64,000 nucleotides of DNA, taken from assembly GCA_051362555.1 (NCBI GenBank), contig CM120645.1, forward strand, positions 9,486,001 through 9,550,000, given 5' to 3'. The DNA comes from Lingula anatina. Lineage: Eukaryota > Animalia > Brachiopoda. The notes under the pieces are model-generated. The model made no database searches and was not told the origin of the DNA. It was given only the letters and a program-made list of their open reading frames with translations. The number at the start of each line of letters is the position of its first letter. The stretch's first letter is position 1. A program made the position numbers and the translations under genes. Of the stretch, positions 42,701-48,700 are shown one piece after another.

Positions 42701-45700
42701 ACAGGTGGCAGCAAAAATAAAACTGGAATCTCAGTGGCAAAATGCCAAATATCATAACCGAAATGCTACAAATCCAAAATATGCCGAAATGGACAAAGTT
42801 TTATTAAGAAATGAAAGAACCCCAAAAGGTTTGACATCCAAACTCGTTCCAAAATTTGCAGGGCCTTTCTATATAGTGAGAGTGCTTGGCAATGCCACAT
42901 ACCAATTGAGAGAGTGTATCACCAACAAACTTGTGAAGGCCCCTGTTAATGCCAATAGACTTAAACCATACAAAGACCCCATTATCAGAACAAAGTTTGA
43001 TGACATCACTCCACAAAATGTTCCAGTTAATGGTCCGATCAATGATACTGAAAATATCCAACCAGAAGCACAATTTGATGCTAATGTACCTGACACTCCT
43101 GTCCCATGTGAAGTTGAGATAGATAACCCACAGGAAAAAGAGGTAGAGAAAGTATTATGTTATGAATGGTACAAAGGAGAAAAGCTATATAGAATAAAGT
43201 GGAAAGGTATAAAAACATCGACTTGGGTTAGGGCTGATAAAGTGCCAGATTTGCTAATTCAGGAATTCCATGCTAATAAGACGAAGAAAGGAAAGAAGAA
43301 AAAGCGTAAACTGGTGACTCGTCAATAGATTGTGATCAGATGTAATGCAACTCCTCAGTATAGAATTGGCAGTCTTTCTAAAATGTCTAGCGCTTAATCC
43401 TTATGCCTTTTTATTGTACAGTCCTGTTCTCCTACTCTTTTCTGATCTTCGGTTTTGTACCTAATGCGCAATCTTCTTGTAGCTGGTTCTATAAGTAAGA
43501 TAGGTAAAGGCCACTTCTTATAATCTCATATTTCTCCTCAGGACCCCAATACGATTGCATAAGTCTATGGCTTGTCATCTGGATGGCTGTGGCAATTCTG
43601 CCCCTTACCAGTGCTGAAAATCGGATAAACTACGGTGTTTTCTTTAGAAATGAAGGGACGATGGCAGTGGTAAACGACTATTGGCTACACACTATGTTGG
43701 TGTACTTGCCAGAAGTTCCGATGGAGCCTAACTTAGAGTATAATTGCGATGGGCGTTTAAATAAGAAAACATGTAAATTAATCGAAAGAGCAGTAGATGA
43801 AGGTAGAAAGTTGTATAGTCAAACAAGAAGTGAATTGAGAGCACTTCGGCATAGAGTAAGTGAAATATTTACCAATGATGATGTTGAGGAAAATAGACAA
43901 AAAAGATCAGCACTTCCATTTGTAGGTAAGGTGGCGAATAGTCTCTTTGGAGTGGCAACGGAAGACCAACTTAATAAGGTGATTGATCACATCAATGCAT
44001 TGCAATCAAGGCAGCAAAAAGCCCTGACATCCTTTTCCAAATTTAGTTCTCAATATGGGTCAATTGTAAGTGGACAAAATGAACGCATGATGAACATGGT
44101 TAAACAGATAGAAGACAATCACCAGTTAAACATAATGTTAGGAGGTGATTTAAAGTATATTGAGAATGAAATAGATTTTACACTTGGGTTATTTACAAAG
44201 TTAATGCATGTAAGTACCATAACTAACAAGCTCACCTTTGAAATCGAAAATACAATGATAGGTATGAATGATGTCTCCCATGGAAAGCTTTCACCAATTC
44301 TATTTCCCCCTCATATGCTAAGCAGCACTTTAAAGAAAATTAAGGCTTCTCTTCAAAAACAATTTCCAGGACTACTTATCAACCAAAATTTGCAGTATTA
44401 CTACCGTTATGGCAAAATTGCCACACATAACTTAAATCAGTCAATAGCAATCACCATCAAAATTCCCATAGCATCCCACGATTTATTTACAGTGTTTCAT
44501 GTTAAAGCAGTACCAGTTCCCCTCAATGCGACAAGTAAGCATGCCACCCTCCTCCACAATGTTCCTGAATACTTTGCCAGTTTTGGGAACCACCACATTA
44601 GCCTGAACTATGATTTTCTGAAATCTTGCACTGGACAAAACCCCATGTTTTGTGCACTGGAAAATACTAAGGTATCCAAAAAACCTCATTGCTTAAAGGC
44701 CCTTCTACTAAATGATAAAACCAGCATCAAAGACCTCTGCGATTTCCAACTCCTACCCAATAGCATCTCCTCCACCTTAACGCCAGTTGGGAAAGATCAG
44801 GTTCTGGTTAACAGAATTCAAAATTTGACAATGCGGTGTTCATCCAATGTAACCAAAGTTGGTTGTAATTTTTGTGTTTTGAAGGTGCCATGTTCCTGCT
44901 CTATAGAAGGGGACTCCACATATATTCCTCCCCGTCGAATTTGTGAACATAATGAAACTACTGAAATTCTTCATCCCATAAATTTAGCACTTTTACAGCA
45001 ACTTTTTGATGAAGGTAGCTTTTCTGATATTTTTGGTCATTCTGTCTTTCAAACACCCCCCAGAGTAACAATCCCCACGTTACGCCTATACAATCATAAC
45101 TTTTCACAATTTTTAACCAAGGATTCCTCCATTAAACTCAATCTGCGAAAAGTAATGTCAGCAGCAAAAAAGGGAGAGACTATATTTCAGTCGCTGACTG
45201 AGCCCCTCTTGTCTGGTGACTTAACATTACCCACAGGAGGACTGTCTCTGGATGATATAATTGGGTATGTAGCTTTGAGTGTTGCAATCCTAGCAATTGC
45301 TCTGTCAGCCACACTTACTTATAAAATCAAAGTTTTAAGCACTGCAATGTTAACTATGGCCCATGCCAAGGCAAACACTGCTCCCAATTTTATCTATCAA
45401 TATAGCTCACCATCTCCGTCACCCAAAATTGAATTCGACATCTATAAAATTTTAACGCATGAAATTGCTCCTGCAGTTTACTTTTCAGCAATACTTCTTC
45501 TTTTTATCATTCTGGGAGTAATTATTTTGTGTAAAGGTAGGCACCAGCAAAATGGCCTAGCACTAGAAATAAACAATGCTGAAAAGAGCATGTTGATACA
45601 CCTATGTCATCTTAAACAGTGTCCATTTGATATCAAAGCAACGGGAAATCAAATTATTGCTAACCTGATAGTAATAAAGGGATTAAGACCAAATTTAGTG

Positions 45701-48700
45701 CTTGAATGGGGAGATGTAACAATAAAAGTGACTCAAGGACAGGTGAACCACTTCATTCCATTGCCTACCAGTGTCCCCTTGTCCTGGTGGCAATATTTTT
45801 CTATCATGTCAATAATTGATCAGCCATTTGATGCGCATCTTGTAGTGTTGCATCATGAACGTTTAATGTACCTCCTGTGAATACCAATTTGACCTTATTA
45901 CGCTATAAAGGGTAAAACAATTTAATGAACAGTCCACTTCTACGGAGTGTGAGTGTGATTATGTGTGATCCACAGTGATTTGTGTTGTATACTTGAGCGT
46001 GTACTGACAGTATACATGAATTATATTAATGAGCTATCATAATATAAGAAAATAATAATTTTTAATTTGATATTAATGAGACGATCAGTATTGATTATCG
46101 AAATTATGTAACCACATTGAAAAAGTTATGATAATTAATTGATGTAGCAATGACCAATATTTAGCAAAAATCTTTGATTTGATGGTGGAGGGTATTGATA
46201 ATATAATGGATTATGATAACATTTATGATGTGAAATATAACTATACATGTAACTCTAAGATGTATATTTGAGTGTACTGACAATATACATGAATTATATT
46301 AATGTTCCATCATGATATAATAAAATAATGACTTTCAATATGATGTTAATGAGAAAATCAGAATTGATTCTGGAAATTATGTAACCACATAGAAAAAAGT
46401 TATAATAATTAATTGACAAATATGAAACAAAACAATTGTTGATTTGATGATGGAGGGTATTAATAATGTAATGGATAAAGATAACTTTAGGTTGTCAAGC
46501 AATGCTACACATGTATCTCTTAAATGTGTAAACACAGGATTATATATTATATACTGTATCTGTCTGTGTAATGTTAAGGCAATCAAATTTGATTGTTACA
46601 GTGAATTAAGAGATGTACCATATTTACTGGTAGTTAAAAGAATATCTTTTTATGCTCAATAGTATTAATTATTTGTAGACATAGACTATTATAGGGAAAC
46701 TTCAGCATTATTATCATTATAACTATGAAAAGGCATGCTAATGTTAAACTTTGTTGCTTATGGCTATAATAATTGCCAGCATAATAGCTTGCACTCGTGT
46801 TTATCTTACGATTATGGTAGTCCTATTATAAGACAATATTTCTGTTTGTCATTACATTGTGAACAAAATTTGAGGCACAAATTTTATTGGGCCAGGAAGA
46901 TGTTTCATGTTAAATTTAGTGATTTTTGGTGAATTTTGGTAATTACAGGGCAGGGTCAGAAATGACCTGCCGTGGCACACAGAGTCAGAGATGACCTACC
47001 ACACACATCTCCAGCATCATTTTGATAATTACAGGGCAGGGTCAGAAATGACCTGCCATGACAAATATTTAGCATTTAACTTGAAATACAGGTCCGTAAC
47101 ACTGGCTGGGCACAAGTTGAAGGGACATGTTGTCGCCCTTACAGTTATCTTAAATGTATCTCTTTGATCATAGGAATGTCTTTGATATCTGTGTATATAA
47201 TCCCCTGCATCCTCACAGAGGGACAGAGGGACAGGGAGAGAGATAGAATAAAGTCAGTGGCAACATTTAACTTGAAATACAGGTCCGTAACACTGGCTGG
47301 GCACAAGTTGAAGGGACATGTTGTCGCCCTTACAGTTATCTTAAATGTATCTCTTTGATCATAGGAATGTCTTTGATATCTGTGTATATAATCCCCTGCA
47401 TCCTCACAGAGGGACAGAGGGACAGGGAGAGAGATAGAATAAAGTCAGTGGCAACAGAAAATCTTGTTGTTGGTTATTGCTGATCCCTCATTCTTCCACT
47501 GATACTGAAGTTCAACTCTGATATTGGCTTGCTAGTGATCCTTGGACCAAGACTGTCAGTTTGTGGACTGGAGAATTTTGGTTCCCTGAAACCTTTCCAT
47601 GGTGTCAAAATAGCACTGTAAATTAAGTCATCTATAACATTTGTGATAGACATCACATTCAATTTTCATTCAACAATAGTCCCATATTGACGGCAGCTGC
47701 CTCATCATGTAAATGACTCTCCTTTTAAAACGATGAATATAGCTGATTCTCAACAAACATTTTCGAGTCATGCAATCATGATATACAAAGAACTTTATCA
47801 GGGAAATTAATGTCTATGCCACGAAGAGTCCCCATAGTTATAGAACTGTTGATTGAAATTATTGAACTTGTCCTGGGAATTCTACAGGTAATGTATTTTG
47901 TATACAAGTAACATGTCCCTGTATTTACCCAGACGTTAGAATACCCATAGCTAGCTTACAGCCCTGAATGCTGTCAGTGTTTGTGTAGAATAGCCCAGGG
48001 ATATGAAGGGCAGTGTTTTACATTATCGTTGACTTTGAGAACATACTTAGACTGAAACTGTGTGGGAAGTCCCACTTGTGTTTCGGTTTTCACTGTACTG
48101 AACATGATTTTTATAGAGAACTGAAGTAGGTTAATTCATCTACCTGTACCCACAGCACTTAATTATTACTAGATGATTTTGAGTACATCCATCCATTATG
48201 TTTTTAAAGGATTTTAATTTTTTTTTTTTTTTTTTGAAGAGGAAGAAGTAAAAATGTTTAATGTTATCAGCAGGTCTCAGTGCATGATAATTAAGTTTTA
48301 AAAAAGTTTTATTAAGTTTTATTTTAATTATAATTTACTTAATTATTCGCTCGGAAATATAACAAGTCTCTAATCCATTTTAGATTGCTCTTAGGAATCC
48401 AACACAGCTCCAAAATGACCCCCCATAACCCCGCGTGGCTTTGGTGACTTTTTGTAAACTGATCTATAGAGATGTTGTTCACAAGTAGAGATTTCAATCC
48501 CTTGATTTTTAATGGAATATACATCTTACGTATGTGAACCCATTAGTCTAGGCTGCAAAAATCTATACAGTATTTTCAAGTGTATGGATTCACATTTCTA
48601 AAACAAGGAAAACATACTAGTATTTTTATGTGTATGTTGTCTGGCACATAGGGCAATCAATAGCAATTACGATTGGATATCAAGTATAAAGCTCTCCATA

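Follow-up and report, generated by a model that had tools for sequence, protein, structure and literature searches.

A predicted second membrane protein with a matrix-like domain at the end of the F-type Env of a Lingula anatina Ty3/gypsy element and its relatives

A 64,000-nt stretch of the Lingula anatina assembly GCA_051362555.1 (contig CM120645.1, positions 9,486,001 to 9,550,000 of the forward strand; hereafter the window, with positions counted from its first letter) contains a long terminal repeat (LTR) retroelement at approximately 38174–47523, the third open reading frame (ORF) of which, env, ends in a C-terminal module that apparently represents a widespread and previously undescribed second membrane protein in the F-type Env of invertebrate Ty3/gypsy elements. 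The parts of this module follow one another in the same order in 114 divergent Env proteins, which display a common charge bias around the second transmembrane segment (TM2) and, in a number of relatives, late-domain-like motifs at the C-terminus. The best explanation, which we consider rather probable, is that signal peptidase cuts Env into the fusion protein F and a small protein whose domain would lie in the cytosol, is predicted to have the fold of a viral matrix (M) protein and which would serve as a membrane-anchored matrix in budding. The module belongs to the regular make-up of this Env family, and the loss of the capsid is a separate feature of the element in the window. Env is composed of the following parts:

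43508–45256, + strand: F-type ectodomain with signal segment (Baculo_F PF12259, E = 2.5e-9, above the cut-off)
45257–45322, + strand: first transmembrane segment (TM1), anchor of F (hydropathy and alignment)
45323–45373, + strand: predicted internal signal peptide, consisting of KIK, a hydrophobic core and an A-K-A site (alignment and rule)
45374–45463, + strand: stalk rich in S, T and P, predicted to be the N-terminal, luminal part of the second protein (composition)
45464–45532, + strand: TM2, anchor of the second protein (hydropathy and flanking charge)
45533–45880, + strand: 115-aa beta domain with a predicted Bornavirus-matrix-like fold (matched core at about 45542–45859)

All segments quoted in an earlier note on this DNA were recovered in frame and in place, with KIK at 45323–45331 and VLSTAMLTMAHAKA at 45332–45373. 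The same note had counted 115 residues after KGRH; a 115-aa tail is indeed encoded by codons 45533–45877 (stop codon 45878–45880), with KGRH forming part of it and 111 residues following. Kyte-Doolittle (KD) hydropathy in 19-mers peaked at 2.25 in TM1 and 3.02 in TM2, and the sole other 19-mer above 1.6 (1.74) overlaps TM1 and extends through KIK. Env residue numbers follow the protein P0001 and are one less than the count from the ATG at 43583. The ectodomain carries RQKR at 43895–43906, which we take to be a furin-type site, and its profile matched two solved ‘fusion protein’ entries in PDB, 9w4c and 9w4d (E = 1e-18 and 6e-17).

A full HMMER search with Env returned 2,170 representatives at E ≤ 0.001, the best 150 of which were aligned with the query (151 sequences). 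Column counts given below refer to the 114 sequences extending at least 215 aa beyond residue 530, the 37 shorter proteins being excluded. The same order of module parts was seen in 114/151 aligned Env proteins, and the presence of the module in the family is not due to chance. A profile of the domain matched 118 of the best 150 of the 2,170 representatives; the other 32 stop before or within the module and are mostly fragment-like, with P0131 possibly representing a plain Env with one transmembrane segment. The set is biased towards proteins matching the tail and therefore gives no estimate of module frequency among F-type Envs. Domain and ectodomain are about equally conserved (median pairwise identity 0.215 vs 0.23–0.29), and the window copy scored as an ordinary member of the domain family (86.5 bits in a leave-one-out comparison, median 96). 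Species names were attached to three clusters among 30 proteins looked up, namely scallop, soft-shell clam and pearl oyster. Word-index homologue searches produced 1, 2 and 4 proteins, too few to judge whether the domain also exists alone or linked to gB. Searches of the open-access literature, covered mostly as titles and starts of abstracts, brought up no account of such a module; the accessible portions of PMC11071296 and 10.1101/2024.09.25.615016 likewise contain nothing bearing on it.

Immediately after TM1, lysine or arginine occupies two alignment columns in 93% of 114 and 85% of 113 rows, respectively. An uncharged hydrophobic run comes next, then a small or aliphatic residue, a variable residue and a small residue (93% of 103 non-gap rows); conservation of the small −1 residue between varying neighbours is what a signal peptidase site would show. 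A home-made signal rule (not SignalP; uncharged core with KD ≥ 1.5 and a −3/−1 site) was matched after TM1 in 99/114 sequences, compared to 2/114 in a control after TM2, which supports the internal signal peptide that the earlier note had placed between the two transmembrane segments. Candidate cuts in the window copy fall after A594 or A596, the latter in register with P0004; across the family the register of the cut site relative to the following motif is mixed (24/54 fit). The stalk has a median length of 32 aa and consists of S, T and P to 37%. Net charge past TM2 was positive in 113/114 proteins and zero or negative ahead of TM2 in 111/114, in agreement with the cytosolic C-terminus suggested earlier for TM2. 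Together these features point to a second protein of 168 aa with its N-terminus outside and its C-terminus inside. We regard the internal signal and the cytosolic domain, taken together, as highly probable, and the pattern in the sequences makes it likely that Env is cleaved by signal peptidase into F and a small membrane protein.

The domain following TM2, for which a beta-rich and possibly matrix-like structure had been suggested, was rendered as a folded beta domain by AlphaFold and is conserved across the family; fold searches now supply a specific candidate at modest scores, the predicted fold being Bornavirus/paramyxovirus M-like. Three separate viral M proteins matched the whole domain, whereas unrelated rows covered only part of it. 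Matches to Borna disease virus (BDV) M (3f1j) and to paramyxovirus/filovirus M domains spanned 95–98 residues with 13–15% identity and a root-mean-square deviation (rmsd) of 3.6–3.8 Å. Other top matches of a TM-plus-domain model were also viral membrane proteins, long chuvirus glycoproteins standing at the top, while coronavirus M and ORF3a did not turn up among the fold-search rows, which does not exclude a likeness to them. A single-sequence fold model of the domain (predicted local distance difference test score of 36) was not used. Net charge of the domain was positive in 103/114 proteins, with a family median of +4. We consider it probable that the domain is homologous with mononegaviral M. 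Two uncharacterised proteins of 134–136 aa in BFVD, from an arlivirus and a rhabdo-like virus (A0A8E8FUE9 and A0A1L3KMT1), matched weakly (E = 0.15 and 0.40) and are candidates for stand-alone M proteins with this fold.

In 89/114 proteins the chain extends at least 15 aa beyond the domain. LYPx[LIV] was present in 30/114 tails (mean 0.16, maximum 3 in 1,000 shuffles) and occurred just twice in 59,264 ectodomain residues; P[TS]AP was present in 17/114 tails (shuffle mean 0.37, maximum 5) and in no ectodomain, while PPxY was not enriched in tails (3 occurrences, shuffle mean 0.99). These counts refer to sequences, not to independent events. Late motifs of these types are cytosolic binding sites for ALIX and Tsg101. 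Their occurrence supports the cytosolic topology and, for the family, a part in budding. A matrix role of the module in budding appears somewhat probable. A cysteine cluster after the domain, possibly a zinc site, was observed in 20/114 relatives (P0017, P0021, P0040, P0046 and others), mostly replacing late motifs: 46 tails carried a late-like motif, 20 the cluster, four both and 52 neither.

Several observations weigh against a cleaved, matrix-like product. Structural scores were modest, with no PDB row at a Foldseek E value of 0.001 and Z below the caution line of 8; a 24-sequence profile of the domain had no significant match to Pfam, PDB sequences or any solved M, known M proteins likewise being without overall sequence identity according to the available part of PMC3887258; two ESM Atlas queries gave no usable match; and the chuvirus matches had an rmsd of 12–22 Å, with aligned ranges on the chuvirus proteins not given. 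No late-like motif was seen in 68/114 tails. The window copy itself stops right after the domain, has a net charge of −1 and none of the four basic helix positions (a state shared by 6/114), and its element carries no P[TS]AP or LYPxL motif in Gag, Pol or Env; late motifs were also missing from P0004 and P0168. The signal core of the window copy is weak (8-mer KD of 1.66 vs a family median of 2.46), and AlphaFold rendered TM1 and the signal segment as a single 35-residue helix. N-glycan sequons were not depleted in the domain (observed-to-expected ratio 1.19 vs 1.23 in the ectodomain), a comparison uninformative on topology. Finally, two cysteines and a histidine of the domain co-vary, both cysteines being present in 71/114 proteins and relatedness confounding the signal; such co-variation is as compatible with a disulfide in the lumen as with a metal site in the cytosol.

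An alternative that accepts the second protein and its cytosolic domain would attribute the likeness to M to a common beta arrangement, with the product assisting F as a chaperone, in trafficking or in the regulation of fusion, and late motifs doing no more than sorting it. We consider this unlikely in view of the whole-domain matches to three separate M proteins, the viral membrane proteins among the further top matches and the prevailing positive charge of the domain. It is less probable still that Env remains a single uncleaved protein, crossing the membrane three times and ending in the M-like domain as a cytosolic tail: the weak core of the window copy, shared by P0004 (KD of 1.44), and the long AlphaFold helix would suit such an arrangement, but the conserved small −1 residue between variable neighbours has no clear other use. 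In a third alternative, the stretch behind TM1 stays on one side of the membrane, TM2 is reversed and the domain is luminal or extracellular, for instance as a disulfide-held attachment domain. The co-varying cysteine pair and the undepleted sequons favour this arrangement, which we nevertheless regard as very improbable given the charge bias and the ESCRT-type (endosomal sorting complex required for transport) motifs at the C-terminus; furthermore, the domain cysteines are fixed in 67–75% of proteins, compared to at least 92% for 10/12 ectodomain cysteines, and the window copy is without one of the two.

The earlier note had further supposed that the module stands in for a missing matrix (MA) or capsid (CA) region of Gag. 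The gag and pol products of the element are:

38634–39239, + strand: short Gag of 201 aa, Q/P-rich and basic, with two zinc knuckles and no capsid (domain search)
39240–43328, + strand: Pol with protease, reverse transcriptase, RNase H, integrase and chromodomain (domain matches)

The absence of a capsid was confirmed, with Pfam matches of Gag confined to the zinc knuckle and a two-sequence capsid profile, run over the element in all six reading frames, yielding no match (best E = 0.34). The state of Gag could be established in three families, two of which combine capsid and module. P0004, the Env of which is 47% identical to that of the window through the last residue, has a Ty3 capsid (PF03732, E = 5.9e-13) together with the whole module. 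The N-terminal part of scallop P0168 matched P0004 Gag (E = 1.4e-11), while P0168 gave no capsid match in Pfam; the Env-tail domain of P0168 scored 116.8 bits. As both gene models join Gag to Env, this linkage of capsid and module rests on annotation. Co-occurrence of the domain with short Gag had been named beforehand as a check, and the domain was found in capsid-bearing elements as well; the stand-in idea is rejected on account of P0004 and P0168. That the module replaces the capsid in short-Gag elements therefore has next to no probability, even though both the window element and the 98% identical P0003 are capsid-less, since a capsid region and a complete module occur together in the two other elements with a visible Gag, and the capsid-less copy has the more eroded domain surface. 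The sister model P0003 displays the same short Gag, and Pol and Env are open in the window element, the LTRs of which are near-identical. The element belongs to a recently mobile capsid-less family that likely depends on other elements.

Under the favoured explanation of a cleaved F and a membrane-anchored matrix, TM1 would stop transfer, K-x-K/R would form a short cytosolic turn, and the segment that follows would re-enter the membrane and be cut after A-K-A. F would remain attached through TM1 and the used signal peptide; the released protein of 168 aa would line the membrane and gather F and the Gag-RNA core, its tail recruiting ESCRT in many relatives. Encoding both in one ORF would hold F and matrix at a ratio of 1:1. 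The window copy keeps the fold and is without late motifs and basic helix, and may therefore rely on other elements. An extended version, which we put forward only tentatively, is that the F-plus-matrix cassette of a large group of invertebrate Ty3/gypsy elements comes from negative-strand RNA viruses and contains a true M homologue acting in ESCRT budding, with a counterpart at the end of long chuvirus glycoproteins that would account for the missing chuvirus M gene, and perhaps a spliced Gag-F-M product.

Expression of env may involve splicing, for which two candidate sites were identified:

39127–39135, + strand: candidate splice donor within the first Gag knuckle (consensus; phase 1, in frame with env)
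43522–43541, + strand: candidate env splice acceptor (pyrimidine tract, CAG)

The consensus donor (39129/39130) and the strong acceptor (43541/43542) are in phase, and splicing between them would attach the Env signal segment to a Gag stripped of its knuckles, making a Gag-F-M precursor possible on the basis of these sites. An in-frame ATG at 43583 lies within the signal segment, with an out-of-frame ATG ahead of it. Gene models P0003, P0004 and P0168, from two host species, join Gag to Env at the same cysteine pair, whereas the join in P0148 and P0173 starts at the pol end. Eight raw RNA runs yielded 9–42 reads each at a depth of ≤3.3 and no joints, which is too thin for conclusions on splicing or expression. 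The P0003 model leaves the env ORF just after TM2 (45536/45537 to 46948/46949) and ends in the 3′ LTR, thereby dropping the matrix-like domain with no read support; this exit is possibly an alternative splice or a prediction artefact. The Gag stop codon TAG is followed in frame by pol (39237–39242), which points to stop-codon read-through.

The element is bounded by two repeats:

38174–38604, + strand: 5′ LTR (matches the 3′ LTR; exact ends uncertain by 1–2 nt)
46902–47523, + strand: 3′ LTR (carries a 191-nt tandem duplication at 47073–47456, confined to this repeat)

LTR identity amounted to 364/364 and 263/264 bases, the second block extending to the boundary, so that the insertion is young. 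The LTRs flank gag, pol and env, and Pol domains follow the order protease, reverse transcriptase, RNase H, integrase, both as expected for a Ty3/gypsy errantivirus; the element is a capsid-less derivative of an F-type Ty3/gypsy errantivirus, not an intact member. The nearest protein in the database is P0003, assigned to Lingula anatina in its source record, and no relatives of the locus were found in metagenome contigs or viral contigs. The termini (38170–38175 and 47519–47527) are not the usual TG...CA and are compatible with (A)TTGG as a target duplication of 4–5 bp. The sequence TGGTGGAG, which resembles a primer site, begins at 38606, and an A+T-rich stretch after env contains an imperfect duplication of approximately 270 nt (45999–46488). 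Elsewhere in the window, host exons lie at 23840–24253 (+), 29390–29746 (−), 33031–33447 (−) and 4511–5295 (−), with matches to CLN3-like and TSR1-like (two domains) proteins and weak leucine-rich repeat matches.

Retroviral MA and coronavirus M have a proposed role in linking envelope and core, as proposed here for the Env module; retroviral MA is helical and part of Gag. To our knowledge, the Gag of Ty3/gypsy elements with Env has no recognised MA. The domain described here is TM-anchored within env and is therefore not filed as a member of Mononegavirales M, though M-like in its predicted working: mononegaviral M is soluble, peripheral and encoded by its own gene, whereas the Env domain follows TM2 inside a retroelement fusogen ORF. 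Internal-signal cleavage of the predicted kind is also used by flavivirus and hepacivirus anchors. In bunyavirus Gn/Gc precursors, as described in excerpts of PMC7926653, the same stop-transfer segment, basic residues, internal signal and signal peptidase cut are found, and a role in binding the ribonucleoprotein during assembly is proposed for the tail of hantavirus Gn. In these viral systems a further glycoprotein is released, and Gn has a zinc-finger domain as its tail; in contrast, the product released from Env is predicted to combine a 30-aa ectodomain with a beta domain.

The closest known elements are the ‘Ancient’ F-type chromodomain errantiviruses (Chary and Hayashi 2026, PMC13524379), for which the available text gives the same LTR-gag-pol-env order, an F-type Env, a chromodomain after integrase and lophotrochozoan hosts in common with the relatives studied here (Lingula, Argopecten, Mya and Pinctada in their source records); unlike them, the window element has no capsid. 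In the portions seen, that paper treats only ectodomains between signal peptide and transmembrane segment and lists Lingula without intact copies, and its main text contains no occurrence of ‘matrix’, ‘cytoplasmic’, ‘late domain’, ‘ESCRT’, ‘budding’ or ‘splic’. BDV M and the paramyxovirus/filovirus M domains resemble the modelled Env domain as single beta domains of like size, the Env domain being basic in most relatives; according to parts of PMC3887258, BDV M is the single-domain form nearest the ancestor, and a G-M gene order occurs in some bornavirid genera in the section of PMC13293379 at hand. The chuvirus glycoproteins among the top matches included those of Hubei coleoptera virus 3, Mogami virus and Taiyuan leafhopper virus. 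The chuvirus genome order names no M gene, and the chuvirus fusogen is of a different, gB-like class (PMC13524379, in part).

If correct, an env-encoded matrix would explain envelopment in a large group of invertebrate elements and provide a testable mechanism of budding. Such a matrix would also point towards an origin of the cassette in negative-strand RNA viruses, add retroelements to the groups that use the Borna/paramyxovirus matrix fold, and provide a place to look for the unnamed chuvirus matrix, namely the end of the long glycoproteins. Even without homology to M, a conserved and unannotated second membrane protein in more than 100 Env lineages alters the annotation of these genes.

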